Shown one piece after another: positions 2,386 to 51,853 of a stretch of 64,000 nt of DNA; the stretch's first letter is position 1, and the number at the start of each line of letters is the position of its first letter. The position numbers and the translations under genes are program-made. This stretch comes from a virus. Below the pieces are notes generated by a model. The model saw only the letters and a list, made by a program, of their open reading frames with translations, did not search any database and had not been told where the DNA came from. The stretch spans positions 1 to 64,000 of IMG/VR virus record IMGVR_UViG_3300020424_000003; one strand, 5' to 3'.

Positions 2386-2997
2386 TTATCTTTGGTTTAG
2401 ATGGTTTAAAACTGCTTTTACGGATTCTTCGTTGGTATCTACATTAGCAACCAGCATATAGCTTGGATTAAAGCTACTGTTAAACAAATAATGCATCTTA
2501 ACTGTGTCCATGAAGTACATACGTCCATGTTCCCAATGCAACAACTTGTTATCTAACATAAAATTAAAATATGGTGGATTACAGTTCTGTAAAGGCACTA
2601 TCAATCTGAAACTGTTTTGTATCAAACAGTGATCTCTGTGTGGCGGAAAGAATCCACCTGTGCCTAGCTTTAAAATGTGTGTTCTATGTATGTGTTTTAT
2701 CCAAGGTTCTAATATGTCCTTGCACCCTTCAATCACAGGCGTTGGTGTTGCAAAATCTCTTTCAGTGTATTGAGTGTTATTTTCTTTGTTGTATTCACCC
2801 AGGCTGTCTAGATCAGGTATACCACTGACACCACCATCTAAACTTGTAACACTTAGGCCGTATCTGTTAATGGATTTGCGTGGATTGTACTGCACATATT
2901 CAAAGTTTTCTTCTGTCCAGGCAACAAAGCTGGGTGCATCCATTGTTAAATCCAATGAATAAAATGAGCCATATGTGATTAGGGTTTGGTAGTCCAT
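2386..2997 (-). CDS. Aspartyl/asparaginyl beta-hydroxylase-like 2OG-Fe(II) oxygenase
   Basis: GGFFPPHRD, RLIVPL, distal His in MDTVKMHYLFN. Confidence 0.6.
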   Translation of the reverse strand: MDYQTLITYGSFYSLDLTMDAPSFVAWTEENFEYVQYNPRKSINRYGLSVTSLDGGVSGIPDLDSLGEYNKENNTQYTERDFATPTPVIEGCKDILEPWIKHIHRTHILKLGTGGFFPPHRDHCLIQNSFRLIVPLQNCNPPYFNFMLDNKLLHWEHGRMYFMDTVKMHYLFNSSFNPSYMLVANVDTNEESVKAVLNHLNQR

Positions 2998-3008
2998 ACT
3001 ATTACTTA

Positions 3009-4310
3009 TTAATCTATGGTTTTAAGTAATATAGTCTCTGGATTGATTCTTCCGTTAAGTTTGATATCTACTGCATTGATTTCATCAAGAAACTTCTTGA
3101 TCTTGACTTTACCAGCATCTTTGAATTCTTTCAATTTTTCGTCTGGTTTTCTAAGGGTCTTTTGTATTGATTCATCTTCGTTGTAGCTCTGTATTGTTGT
3201 GCCTTTGACACTGAGTCCTGATCCTTCTCTGCGTTGATGTAATGGATCTATTGTTTTTGCAACATACCTACCCAACTTACGTGTCTTGATGTTGAAAACC
3301 CATAATTCAGATGCTCCAATTATTTCTTGTGGATTGATACTTGCCAATTGAAACTTTTCATCATTGACTCTAAATTTAAGTTTAGAAACCATCTTCTCTT
3401 TGTCTCTACGTCTCTTACGTGGTTTCCTGTTTGCCTTGGCTGTGTCAATGATTACATCTAAAGCACCCATTATATTTGTTAGTGCTTCATAATACTTTTT
3501 AATATCGTCTTTGTTGCTTAGGCTGTATCCTTCAATTAATTGTTCAGCCCAGTCTCTTTGATGTTCGTCCATCTTTTCTAGTTGAGATTTGGTAGGAGGA
3601 TTCAGCACTTCCATGATTTCGTCTATTTCAGGTTGATACAGTTCCTTCATCTTACGTGCATGGGCCTGTGTGCATTTCATATCATTGAGATGTTTGGAAA
3701 TTCTAAAACCTTTTGGATCAAACTTCTTGGTGTTTGTTTGCCAACCATCAAGCCAATCTTCTAAACCGCCTCTCATGTGGAAGGTTTGTGCTTGTATGCG
3801 TTCTTGTATTGTAGGCTTACCTACTACAATCTTTTTCTTTTTTAATTCTTTCTCTTTCTCTTTAACTTCTTCTATCACTTTGTTACCAAGTTCAAATAAT
3901 TCATTTAATTGTTTATTTACAAAATCTGATACAGGTTTAACCTTTCCCATGGTTCCTGGTAGGGATTCCCAGTATTCAGAATAAGCCTTGTGAGTGTCAG
4001 GAAAGCCTTTGCTTAATAATCTACAACTTGCGCCTAGTGTTGATCCAAACCTCCAGTCTGGATTCTTTTGTATTGCCTTAGTTTTATCTTTCCATTCGTC
4101 TTTGCTTTTGCAGTAATCAATCACATACCTTTTGCAATCAGCGGACTTGGCTTCCCATCTGTAGTATTCATAACATTGGTCACGTAGTCTGCTAAACTGT
4201 TGTCCGTCTAACTCGTTTGCTTTAGATATGTCTGGCTCAGTTAACTTTGTGCTAACTCTCCTAACAGGTTTTTTCTTTTTCCTGCCGGATAGCAAAATCG
4301 ATTTGGCCAT
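3009..4310 (-). CDS. Jumbo-phage hypothetical protein
   Basis: 433-aa ORF, RBS GAGGAG, TTGAC promoter upstream. Confidence 0.6.
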   Translation of the reverse strand: MAKSILLSGRKKKKPVRRVSTKLTEPDISKANELDGQQFSRLRDQCYEYYRWEAKSADCKRYVIDYCKSKDEWKDKTKAIQKNPDWRFGSTLGASCRLLSKGFPDTHKAYSEYWESLPGTMGKVKPVSDFVNKQLNELFELGNKVIEEVKEKEKELKKKKIVVGKPTIQERIQAQTFHMRGGLEDWLDGWQTNTKKFDPKGFRISKHLNDMKCTQAHARKMKELYQPEIDEIMEVLNPPTKSQLEKMDEHQRDWAEQLIEGYSLSNKDDIKKYYEALTNIMGALDVIIDTAKANRKPRKRRRDKEKMVSKLKFRVNDEKFQLASINPQEIIGASELWVFNIKTRKLGRYVAKTIDPLHQRREGSGLSVKGTTIQSYNEDESIQKTLRKPDEKLKEFKDAGKVKIKKFLDEINAVDIKLNGRINPETILLKTID

Positions 4311-15472: not shown

Positions 15473-16174
15473 TTATGCTATTTTAGGGAACAGGGCATTA
15501 GTGCAAAATTCATCAACATCTGCTTCTGCAAGTCCTAATGACTTCATTACACGTGGCGTATGTGGATTTTGTTGCTGATTATGGCAGTAGTAATCCTGAC
15601 AACCAGCAGTAAAGTCTACAGTTTGTTCACCAGCATACTCAGGCACTGATTGAAACCATACCCTTAAATTATCAACTGCTAGTTTACATATTGCAACTGC
15701 TTCTTCTTCTGTGCCAACATTACCAGCCGCTATCATACCATCACTGAAAATATTCTTAGCCCATTCAGGTAATTCTCTTTGCTTTGTAGGAATAAAATCT
15801 TTTACTGCATCTAAGTACCATTCACACAGAGGATGATCTTCTCCACCACTTGATGCTGAAAAGTCATGAAAGGCACCAGTCATCTTACGTTTGCCTGCTA
15901 TCACATCAAAGCCATATATAGGTGAACCATTGTCAAGTGTTGGAAAACAACAGACGTGCATCATCCATAGTCCTTTTGATTCTCTTACATCAACAACATC
16001 TATGTGAGCTCTTCTTACATTGTTGTTTGCCCACACTCTATTGATCCAACCATTCTCAGGTTGATTAAACTTATTGAGACCTTTTTCTTCTATCTCATCA
16101 GCATATTCATCAAAGATACCAAGTATTTCATCTTGGCATTTTATAAGTGTGTCCCATATGATTGATTCACTCAT
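15473..16174 (-). CDS. pcyX: Ferredoxin-dependent bilin reductase, PcyX-type
   Basis: RRAHIDVVD, WMMHVCCFP, PIYGFDVIAG, AFHDFS, LPEWA.IFS, QQQNPHT. Confidence 0.85.
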   Translation of the reverse strand: MSESIIWDTLIKCQDEILGIFDEYADEIEEKGLNKFNQPENGWINRVWANNNVRRAHIDVVDVRESKGLWMMHVCCFPTLDNGSPIYGFDVIAGKRKMTGAFHDFSASSGGEDHPLCEWYLDAVKDFIPTKQRELPEWAKNIFSDGMIAAGNVGTEEEAVAICKLAVDNLRVWFQSVPEYAGEQTVDFTAGCQDYYCHNQQQNPHTPRVMKSLGLAEADVDEFCTNALFPKIA

Positions 16175-17667
16175 CTATTTCCCCATTCTCTATTACCTAA
16201 GCTACCAGGATAAGAAACATTTTTGTTTTGCTTTCTCATTTTACTTAAGATATCTTGTGCTTCTTGTGTGTCTAATTTGGCAGTGGCAGTCTTAATACCA
16301 ACTGTGTTTAACCATAGTTTCCAATTTATGTCTTGGAATATCTCTGTATTACGTGGAAAGAACTGCTCATCAACTGTTGGAGTATAATTTCTTGCATAGT
16401 TAGTTGCAATGGTTTCCATTTTTTCTGTTTCTTCAAAATGTTGATCAACGTGTTTCCAAAATTTACTTTGTCTTTTGTTATTGAAATAATGTAATGCCAC
16501 AAAGTTCATACTGTCTTCGTAAACATTAGACATATCAAAATTAAAATTATCAATGTCTTCTTGTGTGTATCCACCCTTGCTCATACATTTAAGACCTGCT
16601 GATCCAATTATAAGCAAAGCAAGTCCTGTTGATTCTAATGGTTCAATGAATCCACTTGCAAGTCCTACACTAAAACAATTACCACGCCAGTTGTTTGCAT
16701 TGTATTCAGGTTTGAAAGGAACATGGTTAAAGTTTCCTGTTCTCAATCTATCCTCACCCCAATGTTGCACAAAGTAATCTTCTGCTTCTTGCTTGGTTGT
16801 GATTTCACTGTTGTAACATAATCCACTGCCTATTCTATCTTTGACAGGAGTTTTCCATATCCAACCATGATCACAAGCCTGGGCAGTCACATAAGGAACC
16901 TGAGGTTCGTGTTCTGTTGCATAATTAATTTGTGAAGCCACTGCGGCATTTGTAAATAACATATGGCTTCTGTCTATCCATTTGCTATCACCCAACGCAT
17001 TTGAAAGAAGTCTTTTGAAACCTGTGCAATCAACAAAGAAGTCTCCAGTTATCATGTCTCCGTTGTCAAGTGTTAAATGTGCAACCTTGCCATCAATGAT
17101 TGTAGGAGTGTCTATGTTTGCTTTAATGTGTCTAAGTCTTGGATATTTTTTATTACAGTATTCACTTAAGAAGTTTGCAAGTTTAATAGCATCAAGATGG
17201 TATCCTACATGAGCATCACCACCTAATGCAGTTGTGTTTCCTGCAACTTTCTTATCAACAACACTAACATCATACCATGCCGTCCATTGTTCAAAGTCTT
17301 TCATTTCTACATTTCCGTCTCTACATAGATCAACAAAATCTACAAAATTATCTTTTGAGGATTTTTCTATTGGAAAGTAAAAAGGTTGCCAAATGTTTAC
17401 ACCATCATCTCGCCAGTTAGGAAAATATGTGCCTAATTTAATTGTTGCGTCACAGGCCTTGGTCCATAACTCCTTGGGTATTCCACACTCGTCTAAAAAA
17501 TGATCAAACCCAAGTATGGTTGCTTCACCTACTCCAACTGTTGGTATGTTAGGACTTTCTATTAAAGTTATTTGTGTATTGGGTAAATTATTAAGTGCAT
17601 AAGCACAGGTCAACCAACCTGCACTACCTCCACCTACTATTACAATTTTATTGACTTTCGACAACAT
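16171..17667 (-). CDS. Flavin-dependent (tryptophan-halogenase family) halogenase
   Basis: GGGSAG, VGVGEAT, ATIKLG (catalytic Lys), GWIWKTP, GFIEPLESTG. Confidence 0.88.
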   Translation of the reverse strand: MLSKVNKIVIVGGGSAGWLTCAYALNNLPNTQITLIESPNIPTVGVGEATILGFDHFLDECGIPKELWTKACDATIKLGTYFPNWRDDGVNIWQPFYFPIEKSSKDNFVDFVDLCRDGNVEMKDFEQWTAWYDVSVVDKKVAGNTTALGGDAHVGYHLDAIKLANFLSEYCNKKYPRLRHIKANIDTPTIIDGKVAHLTLDNGDMITGDFFVDCTGFKRLLSNALGDSKWIDRSHMLFTNAAVASQINYATEHEPQVPYVTAQACDHGWIWKTPVKDRIGSGLCYNSEITTKQEAEDYFVQHWGEDRLRTGNFNHVPFKPEYNANNWRGNCFSVGLASGFIEPLESTGLALLIIGSAGLKCMSKGGYTQEDIDNFNFDMSNVYEDSMNFVALHYFNNKRQSKFWKHVDQHFEETEKMETIATNYARNYTPTVDEQFFPRNTEIFQDINWKLWLNTVGIKTATAKLDTQEAQDILSKMRKQNKNVSYPGSLGNREWGNR

Positions 17668-18530: not shown

Positions 18531-20423
18531 TTATTTGTCTTTACTAACTTCTTCAAAATCAGCATCAACTACATTGTCGTCCTTTGGTTTATCAGACTCT
18601 GTGTTTGCTTTTTGCTCTGATTCTTGTTGTTGCTTATAGATTGCTTCACCAAGTTTCATTGCACTTTGAGTCAATGTTTCAGTTTTTGTTTTTATATCCT
18701 CTACATTTGACCCTTTTAATGCTTCTTTCAAATCATTAATATCAGACTCAACTTTAGTTTTATCTTCAGCTGATAACTTATCTCCGTGTTCTTTAAGTTG
18801 TTTCTCTACATTATGAACCATTGCATCTGCATTGTTTCTTGTATCGATACCTTCACGTTTTTGTTTGTCAGCCTCCTTGTTTGCTTCTGCGTCTTTGACC
18901 ATTTTGTCTATCTCAGACTCAGATAGTCCACCAGATGCTTGTATGGTTATCTTTTGTTCTTTGCCAGTGCCTTTGTCTTTTGCACTTACATTAACAATAC
19001 CATTTGCATCAATATCAAATGTCACTTCAATTTGTGGCATTCCTCTTGGTGCTGGTGCGATTCCATCAAGTGTAAAGTTTCCTAATGGCTTGTTGTCTGC
19101 CGCCATTTCCCTTTCACCTTGTACAACACTAATTGTTACCGCTGGTTGATTATCCTCAGCAGTTGAAAACACCTGACTTTTCTTTGTAGGAATAGTTGTG
19201 TTCTTTTCAATCAGTTTAGTTGCTACACCACCTAGTGTTTCAATACCTAAAGACAAAGGTGTTACATCTAACAACAAGACATCTTTGACATCTCCTTGTA
19301 GTACTCCACCCTGTATAGCGGCACCTATTGCTACAACTTCATCTGGGTTTACACCTTTGTGAGGTTCCTTACCAAAGAAGTCTTGTACCAACTGTTGAAC
19401 TTTAGGCATACGTGTCATACCACCTACTAAAATTACTTCGTCAATACCATTAGCAGATAGTTCTGCATCTTTAAGTGCTGTCTTACAAGGAACCAACGTT
19501 TTTTGAATCAAGTCTTCAACAAGAGATTCAAGTTTTGCTCTTGTCATCTTGATGTTTAAATGTTTAGGTCCACTTGCATCAGCAGTGATGAATGGTAAAC
19601 TTATGTCAGTTTGTACTGCTGACGATAGTTCACACTTGGCCTTTTCAGCAGACTCTCTTACACGTTGTAATGCAAGATTATCTTTTGTTAGGTCAACACC
19701 TTGTTCTTTCTTGAACTCATCACAGATATAATTTACAATGGTGTTGTCAAAGTCTTCACCACCTAGTGAAGTGTCTCCGTTAGTAGACTTAACTTCAAAT
19801 ACACCATCTCCTATTTCAAGAATTGATATATCAAATGTTCCACCACCTAAATCATATACTGCAACTGTGCCTGACTTTTTCTTGTCAAGTCCATAAGCAA
19901 GAGCGGCCGCAGTTGGTTCGTTTACTATACGTTCAACATCAAGTCCTGCAATCTTACCTGCGTCTTTGGTTGCTTGTCTTTGTGAATCATTGAAGTATGC
20001 TGGTACTGTGATTACTGCTTTCTTTACTTCACTGCCTAAATACTTTTCAGCAGTCTCTTTCATTTTTTGTAAAGTAAATGCAGATATCTGACTAGGAGAA
20101 TAATCCTCGTCTTTTGCTTTTACCCAAGCATCTCCATTTGATGATTTAATTATTTTAAAGGGCGAAGTCTTAATATCTTTTTGTACAGACTTGTCCTCAT
20201 ATTTTTTTCCTATTAGTCTTTTGACTGCGAAGATTGTGTTTTCTGGATTTGTCACTGCTTGTCTTTTTGCAGGAACACCCACTAGCCTTTCATCGCCGAA
20301 AGCTACCACTGAAGGTGTTGTTCTTGCACCTTCTGTATTTTCTATTACCTTGGCGCTACCGCCTTCCATTACTGATACGCAAGAATTGGTAGTACCTAAG
20401 TCAATACCGATTATTTTGCTCAT
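18531..20423 (-). CDS. dnaK: Chaperone DnaK
   Basis: [37 protein letters not shown]-terminus. Confidence 0.98.
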
Positions 20424-21059: not shown

Positions 21060-21620
21060 CTATCTAATTTGGACAAAAAAGAAGTGATTTAAGCTAAATC
21101 TACCCTCTCCAATCACTGGTTTTACTTCATGTTGAATAAAACTAGGAAACAATACAAGTGTATTATTATCCATTTTTGGTGTGTATTCATAGTCTGTAAA
21201 CTGCAATTCTCCACCTGTAAATTGTTTTGGTGCTTCGTATAGCAAAGTGACTGCTGATAAAACTGCATGATCAGGGTGTAATCCATAACTGCTGTCTTTG
21301 TCATAACAATTTAGTTGTGTGACATCTAAATTACACATCTGCAAATAGTTTGCAAATACATTGTCTTTCAGTTGTTCTTTTAGTTCAAATATTTTTCTGT
21401 TGTATCTAAGTATACTGCTAACGTGTCTGTCCTGTTTGTAGTGCATATCAAGATGAACTGCATTCATCCTATTGCTTTTAGGATCACCTGTTCTTTTTGT
21501 GTCTTGGGAGTGTTTGTGTAGATATTTTATTTCTGAAAAAACACTTGGAAGTTCTGCATCGTCAAAAAAATTATCTATTATACTATGTGCAAATGGTTCT
21601 TGTAAGTTTTTAACTTGCAT
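21060..21620 (-). CDS. 2OG-Fe(II) oxygenase
   Basis: YGLHPD, FTGGEL, FPSFIQHEVKPV, RFSL. Confidence 0.82.
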   Translation of the reverse strand: MQVKNLQEPFAHSIIDNFFDDAELPSVFSEIKYLHKHSQDTKRTGDPKSNRMNAVHLDMHYKQDRHVSSILRYNRKIFELKEQLKDNVFANYLQMCNLDVTQLNCYDKDSSYGLHPDHAVLSAVTLLYEAPKQFTGGELQFTDYEYTPKMDNNTLVLFPSFIQHEVKPVIGEGRFSLNHFFFVQIR

Positions 21621-22662
21621 TGAATTTATTGAACACTTGATTAACCTGATGTGTACATCTAACAAAGGTTGCACACTTAGGCATATCTTTTAATCTTTTT
21701 GCACCAATGTATGTACAAGCAGATCTTACTCCACCAAGTATTTCAACAACAGTTGCATCAGCTGGTCCTTTGTGTGGTAGTTCTACCACCTTGCCTTCAG
21801 CACCACGATATCCATCTTTTCTACGACCATGTTTTGCCATAGCGGCATCTGAACTCATTCCATAGAACTGTACTTTGCCGTTGACTACTTCGCCTTCGCT
21901 TTCGTCATGTCCTGCTAACATACCACCAAGCATTACAAAGTGAGCACCAGCACCAAATGCCTTAGCAACATCACCTGGATACACACAACCACCATCAGCA
22001 ATCACGTGTCCTCCAATACCATTGGCCGCATCTGCACATTCAATGACTCCTGATAATTGCGGCACACCAACACCAGTCTGCAATCTAGTTGTGCATACTG
22101 ATCCTGGACCAATACCAACCTTGACAATATCAGCACCACGAATGATTAATTCTTCTGTCATCTCTGCGGTTACAACATTACCAGCAATAAGTGTTTTATC
22201 AGGATAGGTATCTCTCATCTGTGCAATAAATTCACCAAAGTTTTCATGATAAGCATTTGCAACATCAACTGTGATAAATTTAATATCTGGAAATGCTTCT
22301 AAAACTTGTTTCATTGTGTTGTAGTCTGCGGCTTCTTTATCCCAAATGAATCCTGTCCCAGTACAAACACTGATGTATTTCATTTTGATTCCATTACCTA
22401 TTGCTTCTTTCCAGTCATCAAACGTATTGTGTTTTCCTATCACGGTTAACATCTTATGACTTTGCAATACCTTTGCCATGCTAAACGTGCCAACTCCGTC
22501 CATGTTACTCGACATGATTGGAACACCTGTCCACTCATTACCACTGTTGTGAAATTTAAATGTTCTCATTAGATCTACGTCTCTACGACTTTCTAATTTA
22601 GATCTTTTAGGCTTAAAAAGTACGTCACTATAATCTAATTTTATATCATGCTCAATTCTCAT
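21610..22662 (-). CDS. guaC: GMP reductase
   Basis: MRIEHDIKLDYSDVL, KVGIGPGSVCTTR, no CBS domains. Confidence 0.92.
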   Translation of the reverse strand: MRIEHDIKLDYSDVLFKPKRSKLESRRDVDLMRTFKFHNSGNEWTGVPIMSSNMDGVGTFSMAKVLQSHKMLTVIGKHNTFDDWKEAIGNGIKMKYISVCTGTGFIWDKEAADYNTMKQVLEAFPDIKFITVDVANAYHENFGEFIAQMRDTYPDKTLIAGNVVTAEMTEELIIRGADIVKVGIGPGSVCTTRLQTGVGVPQLSGVIECADAANGIGGHVIADGGCVYPGDVAKAFGAGAHFVMLGGMLAGHDESEGEVVNGKVQFYGMSSDAAMAKHGRRKDGYRGAEGKVVELPHKGPADATVVEILGGVRSACTYIGAKRLKDMPKCATFVRCTHQVNQVFNKFNAS

Positions 22663-28844: not shown

Positions 28845-29146
28845 AGTGCAACTTTTCTGTTGCTAGGTAAGTTGCCAACCCCGAGCGATTATGCCGCTAG
28901 GGCAAAATCCTCATTTACAACGGATTTCTGTTTACCGAAGTTAACAAAAGTCACGTTGTTTAGTGCATTATCGTTTGCATCTATACGTTTGTTCGCGTTA
29001 ACCGAGCTTACATCCGGACAGTCTCCTTCAACCTTAACAAGCCAATCGATCCTAATTCCACCCCGTCGGGGGTATATTGAATTGGTGGAGTGGCCGGGAA
29101 TTGCACCCGGGTCTTGCTCTTGTGACATACGTTGCTATCATCAATT
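28845..29146 (-). ncRNA. ssrA: Circularly permuted (two-piece) tmRNA; outer ends approximate
   Basis: T-arm/acceptor piece ...CCACTCCACCA (ends 29083) precedes GGGGTGG 5' end (29064); G3:U pair; tag ORF 28978-28889 ANDN...FALAA. Confidence 0.9.
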
Positions 29147-29215
29147 GCTATGTATTTATAGCCTTATTTGTATAGTATGCACTTAATTGTGATAACTAAT
29201 GTCAAAGGATTAACA

Positions 29216-38189: not shown

Positions 38190-39039
38190 CTTTCATCCAG
38201 TCATGTCTATCAGGGTCTAATTTATGCACCATGCCTGGAATAGGCTCATCAGGAGCAAAGTATTCAAAGTCAAAGTCAACAACAAATGTTCTACGTGGTT
38301 TCTTTGCAGGATATACACCATGCCATACTCTGCCGTCAAGTATTACAGTTCTACCTGGATAAGGACCAAACTGTGTCATTAACTGTGAACCATCTGGATT
38401 AGGCATCAAAGTATAAAGCATACCATTGTCTGCAGATTGTTCATTGGTTCCTGTTGTAGGTTGGGCATCCATTGCCATTACCATACTAATACACATTGGA
38501 CCGTGATTGTGTATTGCTTGATAACCTCCATCGTTATAATCAACACACCAACACTTGCTTACCTTTATTGATTTAATAGGAACACGATTACGTCTAATTT
38601 GTGACATGACCCATTTCAATAGTTTGTCCCAATTGATATTGTCAAACTTGTTTTGATCAATGGGTGGAAAGTTAGATCCAGGATTAGCAGGGTTAACTTC
38701 AAATTCTGTTTCGTTCAGTGTTTGTGAACTTGGAAATCCTACTTGCTCTGGCGTGTCTGGATTCATCTTATCCGAACGCACTACATTGCCTCCCCATTCA
38801 GGTAAGTTCTTAGGAGTCACATCATATTGATATCCTCTGAAAGTAGTTTTAATTTTGCTTTCGTCTTCGCCTCTGTATTCTTCGTTCTCAAATAACTTTA
38901 AAAAATCTTCATAGAATGGACACTTGACATCAATTATCCATTGGTTCATTGCACTATGAAATTCTGTGTTTGAATTAGGATTTACGTTTGGAGTACCTTC
39001 ATATGGATCCGGAGCCATGTGTTCTGTCTTCTCAACCAT
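38179..39039 (-). CDS. Putative 2OG-Fe(II)/cupin oxygenase
   Basis: WCVDYNDGGYQAIHNH, PGRTVILDGRVWHGVYP, RRTFV. Confidence 0.7.
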   Translation of the reverse strand: MVEKTEHMAPDPYEGTPNVNPNSNTEFHSAMNQWIIDVKCPFYEDFLKLFENEEYRGEDESKIKTTFRGYQYDVTPKNLPEWGGNVVRSDKMNPDTPEQVGFPSSQTLNETEFEVNPANPGSNFPPIDQNKFDNINWDKLLKWVMSQIRRNRVPIKSIKVSKCWCVDYNDGGYQAIHNHGPMCISMVMAMDAQPTTGTNEQSADNGMLYTLMPNPDGSQLMTQFGPYPGRTVILDGRVWHGVYPAKKPRRTFVVDFDFEYFAPDEPIPGMVHKLDPDRHDWMKDGK

Positions 39040-39712
39040 TTACTACCTTTCTCAGTTGTGATTTAGGAACATCAATGTGTCTTTTATCACACTCTGTATC
39101 TATCACACAAATGTTGCACTTGGGCTTTTTACTTTTGCACACTCTTTTTGCATGAGTTATAAGTTGCATATGAGCGGCGTACTTGTACTTATCGGGTGTA
39201 GATTCGTTGACAACAATACTTGACTTGCCTTCATCTAAACTATCTGTCCAACCCAATCTCCACAACAATCTAAACACATGAGTATCAACTGCTATGTAAG
39301 GTTTATTAAACACAAACCTCATTACAATGTCAGATGACTTTTTACCTACACCTGGTAACTTCATTAGTTCTTTTTGTGTGTCAGGAACACGACCATCGTA
39401 CTCCTCTAATAATTTTTTACTTGTTGCAAGAATGTTTTTGCTTTTTGCATTATATAATCCTGCAGGCTTGATTGCTTCTATCACTTGTTCCTGTGTGAGC
39501 TTTATCATTTCTTGTGGAGTTTCAGCTAATGCAAATAATTGTTTACAAGCCACAGCCGTTCTTGCATCTTGGCTTTGTGCTGACAACATAACTCCTATTA
39601 AACTTTGATAAGCTCTGCTATGAATCTTTGCGGCAGGCTTGGCGTTCCTATACTTAGGCCAATAGTCAGAAAGTCTTTCGTAAATTGTTTCAATCTGTTT
39701 TTGTGTTTTCAT
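39032..39712 (-). CDS. nth: Endonuclease III (HhH-GPD, 4Fe-4S)
   Basis: LSAQSQD, LPGVGKK, VDTHVFR, C-x6-C-x2-C-x5-C. Confidence 0.92.
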   Translation of the reverse strand: MKTQKQIETIYERLSDYWPKYRNAKPAAKIHSRAYQSLIGVMLSAQSQDARTAVACKQLFALAETPQEMIKLTQEQVIEAIKPAGLYNAKSKNILATSKKLLEEYDGRVPDTQKELMKLPGVGKKSSDIVMRFVFNKPYIAVDTHVFRLLWRLGWTDSLDEGKSSIVVNESTPDKYKYAAHMQLITHAKRVCKSKKPKCNICVIDTECDKRHIDVPKSQLRKVVNG

Positions 39713-49920: not shown

Positions 49921-49953
49921 AAAAAAAATGGAGCCTTCCCTAAGGTTGGCTCC
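49921..49953 (-). terminator. Intrinsic terminator downstream of pqqA
   Basis: GGAGCC..GGCTCC hairpin followed by T8. Confidence 0.6.
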
Positions 49954-49996
49954 TAGTTAAAATTATAATATACTACAATATTATTATAATGTCAAC

Positions 49997-50074
49997 CTAT
50001 TTTTCTGCACAGGCATATGAATTAATTTCTAATCCAACTGATACCTCTACGATTTGTGGTTTAGTCCATTGCAT
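49997..50074 (-). CDS. pqqA: PQQ precursor peptide PqqA (25 aa; not in ORF track)
   Basis: MQWTKPQIVEVSVGLEINSYACAEK: W-x-K-P leader and G-x-E-x3-Y core; AGGAG RBS. Confidence 0.85.
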   Translation of the reverse strand: MQWTKPQIVEVSVGLEINSYACAEK

Positions 50075-50191
50075 CGTACGTCTCCTAAATAAAGGTTACG
50101 TGCCGGTTGTCTACTGACCGCGGTCCACAGTAGAATTAATTCTACTAATAATATATAGCATATCCGATATGAACGTGCAATGAACAAATGA

Positions 50192-50440
50192 TTATGGCTT
50201 TAGCCATTTCTTAGATAGTTCGTACCAATACTGTCCACCTTCACGTAGAAGTTCATTGTCAGTACGTAACCTTTCAAGCCTACGAACTATTACATCGTGT
50301 TGGTATTGTGATATAACTTTATTCTTATTTTGATGTTTTTCTAAACGTGCTATTATATCGTCAATGATGGGGCAAGTTATGTCAGGCACCTTAGGTGACT
50401 TACGTTTTAATTTTAGCCAGTGTTTTTTCTCTAGTGCCAT
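50192..50440 (-). CDS. Hypothetical protein
   Basis: PKVPDITCP.ID..LE.LR..N..LR..G.YWY. Confidence 0.55.
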   Translation of the reverse strand: MALEKKHWLKLKRKSPKVPDITCPIIDDIIARLEKHQNKNKVISQYQHDVIVRRLERLRTDNELLREGGQYWYELSKKWLKP

Positions 50441-50490
50441 ATAAATTATTTAAATGTAACGACACTAGAGTTCTAAAGGTGTTTAAAAGA

Positions 50491-51450
50491 TTACCAACCG
50501 TTTGGAACGATTACGTAATGAATTGCTAAAACTACTCCTACTGATGCTCCTAATCCTACGATCATCTTAAAGAAGTCTCTTCCTATCAAAGGAAAAACAG
50601 TTTTAAACTTTTCCTTACCTGTGATAGTTGCCATAGCAAGTTCTCTACCACAAAGTAATCCTACGAATACCCAAGTGGTTGACATTGGCACATCATTAAG
50701 TTCTTTAAAGAAGAATAAGATCAACCAATACACAAAGTCAATGATAGTCGCTGACCTAACATATCTTGTATTGTGTTTCTCCAATACAATCTTTTGTATC
50801 TTACCTCCGCCTTCTCTAAACATAAAGCCAAGTCCTGCTATGAATACAGTTGATATGATTATCATTAGTTCCCAGGGTATCTGTCTTGGTAGGAACACGG
50901 CAATATTTGCCATGTCATGACTTAACCAAGTAAACCAAAGGAAGCCTGTTGTAACCCATTGACCTATACGCCAATAAAGTTTATGTTCTTCCTTGACTGG
51001 TTTTGCTTCGTCAAGTATTTTGCTAACAACAATCCAAATACAATATGCCGCCACAGCCGCGACTGCATATCCCATCATAGATTTCATTAACATTTTCTCT
51101 AATACAAACGTACTAGCAAATGCACTTAACACTAGGAACGAAGTACTAACTGGTACTCCTATCCTTGTCAACACTAATAGTAGTGCTGGTGCCATTGCAT
51201 GATACCATTGTATCTCTTGAAAAGGTATCCTGTTCAATCGACCATAACTGATGTCTCCACCATTTGTGGTCCACCCATACCATAGGGTGTATAGCAGAAC
51301 TGCCGAAGCGGCTCCCCACATGATCTTCCAGTTTACTTTTTCGTTATTTGATGCGATCCAAGTACCAAGAGTCTGTACTGAATCGTTTGCTATAACGGCA
51401 TAGCCGGCAAATAAAAAGCCAACTGCCATCCATAGAGTGACTGCATCCAT
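50491..51450 (-). CDS. PiT/PHO4-like inorganic phosphate transporter (divergent)
   Basis: Multi-TM with internal duplication: IANDSVQTLG / SHDMANIA and PVSTS / PMSTT signatures. Confidence 0.6.
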   Translation of the reverse strand: MDAVTLWMAVGFLFAGYAVIANDSVQTLGTWIASNNEKVNWKIMWGAASAVLLYTLWYGWTTNGGDISYGRLNRIPFQEIQWYHAMAPALLLVLTRIGVPVSTSFLVLSAFASTFVLEKMLMKSMMGYAVAAVAAYCIWIVVSKILDEAKPVKEEHKLYWRIGQWVTTGFLWFTWLSHDMANIAVFLPRQIPWELMIIISTVFIAGLGFMFREGGGKIQKIVLEKHNTRYVRSATIIDFVYWLILFFFKELNDVPMSTTWVFVGLLCGRELAMATITGKEKFKTVFPLIGRDFFKMIVGLGASVGVVLAIHYVIVPNGW

Positions 51451-51595: not shown

Positions 51596-51853
51596 AGCAT
51601 TTATAACAAAACAGCAAGACACCCATGCAAAAAAAATACGTCATTTAAGAGGAGAGTTTTGTGCGTATTTTATAAATACGAATGTCGACGCAAAGACTTC
51701 TCAAGTTTTTCCGATGACACACATACACACTGGGATTGACCAGGGAGTTGAGAGCACTCCTTAAATAGCAAATGACGGTAGCAAAGACTACTGACGCCTA
51801 GAAAAGACTAGGGGTATTGCTTTCCTTAAGCATCCAAAACATAGGAGAAAATA

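Follow-up and report, generated by a model that had tools for sequence, protein, structure and literature searches.

A stand-alone pqqA gene of the alphaproteobacterial type in an uncultured large marine phage lineage and its probable role in PQQ supply during infection

The pqqA locus and its phage context

The stretch of DNA analyzed here (the window) comprises positions 1 to 64,000 of an 80,675-b IMG/VR virus record with a CheckV completeness of ~22%, and carries, on the minus strand at 49997..50074, a 25-codon pqqA gene of the alphaproteobacterial type. The encoded peptide has 25 aa with its own start and stop in an open frame of only 32 codons, begins with the leader M-Q-W-T-K-P (W-x-x-P) and contains the core ...SVGLEINSYACAEK, in which Glu16 and Tyr20 are the residues that become PQQ. 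The ORF scores 35 bits against PF08042 in a Pfam profile search (cut-off 21.1, E 1.4e-8) and 37.9 bits against the NCBIfam equivalog model TIGR02107 (cut-off 20). Moreover, a six-frame search for PqqA across the entire 80,675-b record yields a single match, at E 9.5e-9, and the gene is therefore not a chance ORF. With both profile scores above the curated cut-offs, and with the pN/pS values discussed below, the identification as PqqA proposed in the initial annotation of this DNA is confirmed: the ORF is a genuine member of the pqqA family.

The gene is framed by its own expression signals. A Shine-Dalgarno sequence, AGGAG, can be read at 50082..50086 (minus strand), 7 nt ahead of the ATG at 50074, and a GGAG-type site is found at equal spacing in most of the 14 viral alpha-type copies. 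Downstream, sequence and predicted folding reveal an intrinsic-terminator-like element (49921..49953, minus strand) that consists of a GGAGCC...GGCUCC hairpin at 49930-49953 followed by U8 at 49921-49928. The hairpin starts 43 nt past the pqqA stop and has a folding energy of -14.5 kcal/mol (z = -2.1 vs shuffles); most viral copies, as well as host copies, have a G+C-rich hairpin after the stop codon. The 25-codon frame originally described at this locus was thus recovered with exactly the same coordinates and peptide, as were the AGGAG site and the downstream terminator. Between the stop codon of pqqA and the stem-loop of the terminator is a near-consensus sigma-70-like site (TTGACA-17-TATATT, 49967-49995, minus strand, 11/12 matches). 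Transcription initiated there would begin at the terminator, which is hard to reconcile with a promoter function, and this site may be a chance match in A+T-rich sequence, as which it is treated here.

The genomic surroundings of pqqA are those of a bona fide phage, with phage genes on its flanks. The record carries six tRNAs and a permuted (two-piece) alpha-type tmRNA (28845-29199, minus strand; RF01849, 96 bits; RF04321, 89.5 bits), for which ARAGORN predicts a tag of 29 residues with an ANDN start and an LAA end, together with genes for a full-length Hsp70/DnaK (18531-20423, minus strand; PF00012, 921 bits), both ribonucleotide reductase subunits, an ATP-dependent DNA ligase and tail-fibre-like proteins. 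Several genes are host-like, namely those for a tryptophan halogenase (16171-17667, minus strand; 310 bits), an IMP dehydrogenase/GMP reductase-family protein (21610-22662, minus strand; 230 bits) and an HhH-GPD base-excision glycosylase (39032-39712, minus strand). In the vicinity of pqqA, at 50491-51450 (minus strand), lies a gene for a 319-aa multi-pass membrane protein that belongs to no Pfam family. It is probably a transporter-like gene of host origin, and IMG/VR contains 422 relatives of the protein, the best 80 with 86-98% identity to it.

A 356,312-b viral record, which is 96% complete, bears pqqA itself and was found by pattern search, has matches to 41 ORFs of the contig, at identities of 26-69%, and the two share a long syntenic block (their DnaK proteins are 63% identical). 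Accordingly, the window is part of the genome of a marine phage from an uncultured lineage, in which genomes measure ~360 kb, a size judged from the CheckV completeness estimates of related records. Megablast of the 10 kb around pqqA against the GenBank phages (50,697 records) gave no match, and neither did tblastn of the 319-aa membrane protein against the same phages, so that the lineage is without a cultured or deposited relative in this set. The "moraphage" jumbo phages (PMC12619734) were considered as a possible identity of the lineage and set aside: their predicted hosts are Bacteroidota, the paper names neither PQQ nor tmRNA, and no link was established. The 6 kb around pqqA is near-identical in 14 marine DNA runs from six studies spanning 2014-2024. 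The pqqA region is also reached by RNA-library contigs from at least two studies, and single contigs in X15 and X16 span the gene; their cover is flat over the whole 6 kb, so that carry-over of DNA may account for it. In contigs of four RNA-library runs, a 21-nt insertion relative to the window follows position 51772, a population variant in an intergenic/early region beside the membrane-protein gene.

With respect to the remainder of the PQQ pathway, the PqqB, PqqC, PqqD and PqqE models find no match at E <= 1 in the 80.7-kb contig, which extends to the whole contig the absence of pqqBCDE that had been reported for the window. The contig makes up only ~22% of the genome, and hence the absence of pqqB-E from the entire phage rests on the related 96%-complete record; in principle, the phage could have pqqB-E of its own in the missing part. 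The pqqA-bearing viruses of 356 kb (96% complete) and 66 kb (100% complete) were both found to be without PqqD, PqqE, a significant TENA/PqqC-family match or PQQ-repeat enzymes, such that pqqA stands alone in near-complete viral genomes as well. A PQQ-dependent dehydrogenase was found neither in the 80.7-kb contig nor in the 356-kb record, and no PQQ methanol/ethanol dehydrogenase in 50 further pqqA-bearing viral records, two of which are at least 98% complete. In five related records (up to 204 kb), the PqqD and PqqC models detect nothing and there is no PQQ_2 repeat enzyme; the matches to the PqqE model in these records are generic radical-SAM proteins, at 12-33 bits against a cut-off of 381. 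The gene, furthermore, does not occupy the head of a pqqABCDE operon. Its position outside such an operon is not disqualifying for a PqqA, given that genomes of TMED127 marine alphaproteobacteria, to which we return below, have two to five dispersed pqqA copies, most of them away from pqqC.

The occurrence of radical-SAM proteins in this lineage bears on an alternative under which the phage peptide is not a precursor of PQQ at all. It could instead be a substrate or ligand of another radical-SAM maturase, encoded by phage or host and producing some other modified peptide, or it could have a role in phage-host conflict. Several radical-SAM proteins are encoded in the related large phage records, and a PqqA-annotated peptide family has been found to be co-expressed with defense systems in one metagenomic study (PMC11118758). 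However, there is no radical-SAM match in the 80.7-kb contig, such genes are located far from pqqA in the relatives, and the viral peptide type tracks the type of PQQ-using host, both in the Methylophilaceae phages and in the TMED127-type peptide of the window. We therefore consider a role outside PQQ synthesis to be quite unlikely.

A 5' hairpin and a variable 486-bp segment

Upstream of the ribosome site, alignments A1 and A2 define a 31-nt hairpin with 10 pairs in two helices (50099..50129, minus strand) in the 5' leader of pqqA. All 99 of 99 alignment cells pair and four of the 10 pairs show compensatory changes; the score was reached by none of 500 shuffles, and controls with slid partners collapse. 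One pair is C-G in five and U-A in seven of the 12 motif-bearing viral leaders, and a mismatch never occurs. Taken in full, the 111-nt leader shows no unusual stability (z = -0.13); what is supported, by covariation, is only the 31-nt hairpin within it. The motif occurs once in the window, matches no Rfam family and precedes 12 of the 20 distinct alpha-type copies from viruses, in differing genomic contexts, as opposed to one of 124 bacterial-genome loci, that one with phage-like composition and a phage-like peptide; the hairpin is absent from the pqqA copies of TMED127. As supported by covariation, the hairpin is predicted to be a conserved 5' element specific to the phage cassettes that carry pqqA of the alpha type.

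A contig labelled as part of the Maricaulis sp. MAG IN14 (L305, NZMJ01000006.1; 13.8 kb, 36% G+C) contains a pqqA of viral type, preceded by the phage leader hairpin. No PqqC match was found in the 4.1-Mb genome to which this contig is assigned, and the contig looks like phage DNA that was binned into a bacterial MAG.

Directly upstream of this hairpin, an A+T-rich box at 50131..50165 (minus strand), with partly conserved A/T columns in alignment A1, is a candidate promoter that would place the 5' end of the transcript at the hairpin. No consensus sigma-70 site is called on the minus strand within this interval.

Comparison with relatives by blastn shows that nearly all of pqqA, along with an 82-aa ORF, belongs to a discrete 486-bp segment (50005..50490, minus strand). 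In a close relative (L004, L086 and L087), the flanks of which are 81-93% identical at the nucleotide level, window position 50491 joins directly to 50004. In L003, the closest relative, the pqqA block (85% identity) is displaced 2.2 kb further from the membrane-protein gene. Since this relative is without it, the segment behaves like accessory DNA inserted at a variable site. The 82-aa ORF (50192..50440, minus strand; taken from the ORF list) lies directly upstream of pqqA and belongs to no Pfam family; a partial homologue of it is found elsewhere in L004.

Viral spread, selection and peptide types

To survey the gene among viruses, IMG/VR contigs were scanned with a degenerate DNA pattern for W-x-K-P-x7-G-x-E-[VI]-[TN]-x-Y, which gave matches in at least 120 viral contigs, drawn from many phage lineages. 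All 80 viral loci examined contain a frame of 23-27 codons with a Met just ahead of the Trp and a stop few codons past the Tyr. The neighbours at these loci are varied and typical of phages; they include a YqaJ exonuclease, the Sak annealing protein, RegA, Hsp20, endolysin, holin, capsid, portal and ribonucleotide reductase, and no neighbour family is common to more than 16 of the 80; thus, pqqA is present in many distinct phage lineages. Within the lineage of the window, by comparison, the gene is found in five of 50 related records.

Cultured phages carry the gene as well. A tblastn search of the GenBank phages with the commonest viral peptide recovered nine phages with Methylophilales or Methylophilaceae as their recorded isolation hosts (Venkman, P19250A, MEP301, MEP401, MEP402 and four Melnitz strains), at 77-96% identity, and every Methylophilales-isolated GenBank phage among the matches listed has pqqA. 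The prediction that a gene this small would escape ordinary gene calling proved correct, in that pqqA is unannotated in these phages, and the search for viral homologues, envisaged at the outset as a check, produced them in numbers. In Melnitz-1 (L416, MZ577095.1), pqqA at 2995-3069 (+) is covered solely by an annotated antisense "hypothetical protein"; in Venkman (L417, MT375522.1), pqqA at 2501-2572 (+) lies in a stretch devoid of annotation, at the point where gp28 is left out of the gene numbering. The Melnitz paper leaves the pqqA gene unmentioned, and PQQ appears in it only as a medium ingredient.

The viral gene is under purifying selection. The pN/pS ratio is 0.22 in both viral groups, which comprise 14 distinct alpha-type and 67 distinct Methylophilaceae-type DNA sequences, with synonymous sites near saturation; furthermore, positions not dictated by the search pattern show no amino-acid variation, although several codons are used for them. 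This bears directly on whether pqqA might be a neutral passenger, that is, a scrap of host DNA with no part in infection. The variable presence of the gene, with few carriers among the related records and a close relative that dispenses with the entire 486-bp segment, is what such a passenger would be expected to show. Nevertheless, the low pN/pS across 81 distinct viral DNA variants, the recurrence of the gene in many unrelated phage lineages including the phages isolated on Methylophilales, and the conserved phage-specific leader hairpin that host copies lack make neutrality highly improbable. The same data address the possibility that the locus functions mainly as a small RNA, with a fortuitous open frame. 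A very short frame is indeed flanked by conserved hairpins on its 5' and 3' sides; however, codon conservation is protein-like, with fixed amino acids despite the near-saturated synonymous sites, and a strong ribosome site stands at the right spacing in most copies, such that a small RNA locus is an exceedingly improbable explanation.

The two residues that give rise to PQQ deserve particular attention. The first search pattern required Glu and Tyr; a second pattern left both positions free, and the two residues were kept in 120 of the 120 listed matches, which are viral copies of the Methylophilaceae type. Loss of this conservation among phage homologues had been named as an observation that would count against the gene, and the pair has instead turned out to be fixed in this set. 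The initial annotation had also raised the alternative of a decoy. In such a role, as a decoy or competitor, the phage peptide would occupy the host PqqD/PqqE and lower or redirect PQQ synthesis, resulting, for example, in dehydrogenase shutdown or interference with a competitor. Carriage of the peptide alone, never of the enzymes, would suit a decoy, as would the few positions at which the phage leader peptide differs from those of host copies. A decoy would be expected, however, to retain the leader and to lose Glu or Tyr, both of which are kept, whereas the core ...SVGLEINSYACAEK of the window is identical to that of host copies, and an intact substrate would simply become PQQ. A decoy is accordingly not favoured and seems to us very unlikely.

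The viral PqqA peptides fall into two types, a Methylophilaceae type (...RFGFEVTMY...) and an alphaproteobacterial type (...SVGLEINSYACAEK). Phages isolated on Methylophilales have the former, as do five relatives of the window lineage (G021, G022, G043, G045 and G051); the latter is that of the window and L003. The presence of the Methylophilaceae-type peptide in relatives of a single phage lineage implies either that hosts differ within the lineage or that the gene moves between phages.

To place the alphaproteobacterial type, one genome per prokaryote species was scanned for GLEINxYACA, with at least 120 matches, nearly all of them in Alphaproteobacteria among those listed. Among the cellular matches listed, the exact ...SYACAEK end and the closest peptides are confined to low-GC (26-36%) genomes of ~1.2-2.6 Mb obtained from marine single cells and metagenomes, and this end is common, among the matches listed, only to low-GC marine alphaproteobacterial genomes and viral copies. 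PqqC scores above its curated cut-off in 23 of the 26 low-GC marine genomes tested, and a PQQ methanol/ethanol dehydrogenase does so in 19; in several of them, the dehydrogenase gene is located a few kb from pqqC. The prediction of a pqq-positive host made for this phage is borne out insofar as the closest cellular PqqAs reside in these genomes.

The GTDB order of the genomes with the closest peptides includes the MAG MED657, which has been placed in TMED127/Methylaequorales, also termed "Clade X" (PMC12542740); in surface seawater, xoxF5 accounts for 16-57% of TMED127 transcripts (PMC12542740). In this order, PqqA is found in 39 of 42 genomes, most of which have two to five dispersed single-gene copies, suggesting that peptide supply matters to these cells. 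In the TMED127/Methylaequorales genomes (G056-G162, ~1-2 Mb), a ribosome site and a terminator accompany each dispersed copy. The TMED127 paper (PMC12542740) makes no mention of pqqA.

Comparison of these cellular mini-cistrons with the window gene reveals an identical core and C-terminus and, likewise, a strong ribosome site and a terminator of their own. In contrast, the TMED127 copies start with MAW... and are without the phage 5' hairpin, and one of them adjoins pqqC and xoxF in a methylotrophy island. The peptide leaders WTKP and WNTP both occur in host copies as well as in phage copies. The G+C content is 37% in the phage vs ~31% in the TMED127 loci.

Other genes of the record were considered as host markers and set aside. 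The DnaK is 70-74% identical to that of every alphaproteobacterial group tested. For the tmRNA, blastn against 401 alphaproteobacterial genomes gave one 34-nt match only, and an alpha-type tmRNA can also be carried by an OM43 phage (Melnitz paper), which makes it an unsafe host marker. Homologues of the 319-aa membrane protein with 62-65% identity are found in two genomes of marine Alphaproteobacteria that do not belong to TMED127; they lie ~10 kb from dnaK there and look like ordinary chromosomal genes rather than mis-binned phage contigs. Our literature search found no paper describing a TMED127 phage. The peptide and genome comparisons described above point, at roughly even odds, to TMED127/Methylaequorales, a PQQ-producing alphaproteobacterial methylotroph, as the likely donor of the gene and the probable host of the phage, an assignment that rests on one 25-residue peptide.

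A probable role in PQQ supply and its implications

PqqA is consumed one-for-one with each PQQ made, its Glu and Tyr being cross-linked and excised, whereas the enzymes of PQQ synthesis are catalytic. Across the phages of PQQ-dependent methylotrophs, a common pattern is apparent: the consumable part alone is kept, in the peptide type of the host and with strong expression signals. Given this pattern, the intact Glu/Tyr pair and the purifying selection, we consider it likely that the phage gene is a functional, host-derived pqqA that acts as an auxiliary metabolic gene, sustaining the supply of PQQ for XoxF-type methanol oxidation during infection.

Under this proposal, the phage would encode only the precursor peptide, one molecule of which is spent per PQQ, while the chemistry would be left to PqqD/E, PqqB/C and a peptidase of the host. 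Transcription would start at or just before the 5' hairpin, and the self-contained cassette, consisting of the A+T-rich box, the 5' hairpin, the ribosome site, the 25 codons and the terminator, might yield a short, stable and highly translated mRNA. The resulting PQQ would then load a periplasmic methanol dehydrogenase of the XoxF type, and possibly glucose dehydrogenase, such that respiration could go on as transcription of the host pqqA fades. PQQ is a stable cofactor, and hence it is not obvious that its new synthesis limits an infection.

A parallel is offered by the psbA gene (D1) of cyanophages, where the phage carries just the component that is turned over or consumed fastest and the host supplies the remaining machinery. 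The logic of pqqA carriage would, by analogy, be the same; psbA, however, encodes a protein subunit, the expression of which during infection has been measured, whereas PqqA is the stoichiometric substrate of a cofactor.

Closer precedents exist among the phages of methylotrophs. Venkman, P19250A, MEP301, MEP401/402 and Melnitz resemble the window in having a stand-alone pqqA (of 23-24 codons in their case) with an intact Glu-x3-Tyr and its own ribosome site and without pqq enzymes; they differ from it in the ...RFGFEVTMY... core and in that their hosts are known, whereas the host of the window phage is inferred from the ...SVGLEINSYACAEK core. Moreover, viral PqqA has already been published in phages of methylotrophs from Lake Baikal (population VP_266; Coutinho et al., 2020, Microbiome 8:163, PMC7678222), and the novelty that the initial annotation implied for a phage pqqA was therefore overstated. 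As in the window, a lone PQQ precursor gene was found there in an uncultured phage with a predicted methylotroph host, and was read as an auxiliary gene supporting methanol oxidation (PMC7678222). The Baikal phages, in contrast, are from freshwater and were assigned to Methylophilaceae as hosts, and a viral methanol dehydrogenase was reported in these populations (PMC7678222), whereas the window represents a marine phage of ~360 kb with a peptide of the alphaproteobacterial type, and no dehydrogenase was found in its contig, in the five related records or in the 50 other pqqA-bearing records. What is specific to the window is the combination of the alphaproteobacterial type on a ~360 kb phage lineage, a clean 486-bp presence/absence polymorphism and a covarying leader that is confined to phages.

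These findings have several practical consequences. Because pqqA falls below the length limits commonly set in gene callers, and because the GenBank entries of the cultured methylotroph phages do not annotate it, surveys of viral metabolic genes undercount it. Since the peptide type tracks the host class, the PqqA type could be used as a marker for host prediction in uncultured phages. The medium used for OM43 phage-host cultures contains 1 nM PQQ (Melnitz paper), which could mask a pqqA phenotype.

More broadly, it is conceivable, although we put the chance somewhat below even, that phages of the two main methanol oxidizers of the ocean, Methylophilaceae (OM43) and TMED127/Methylaequorales, have each captured a pqqA of the host type, and that the alpha version has become a phage-specific mobile cassette, with its covarying 5' hairpin and terminator, that moves between unrelated phage genomes. 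If this is the case, the supply of PqqA would limit XoxF-based energy metabolism during infection, and the cassette would be the first sequence marker for phages of TMED127, including phages of ~360 kb with host cells whose genomes measure 1.5 Mb. Among the PQQ-dehydrogenase transcripts of the surface ocean, those of PQQ-dependent methanol dehydrogenases that use lanthanides predominate (PMC11996626, PMC12542740). Thus, if the phage gene feeds the PQQ pathway, viral infection would directly shape the marine cycling of methanol and lanthanides.
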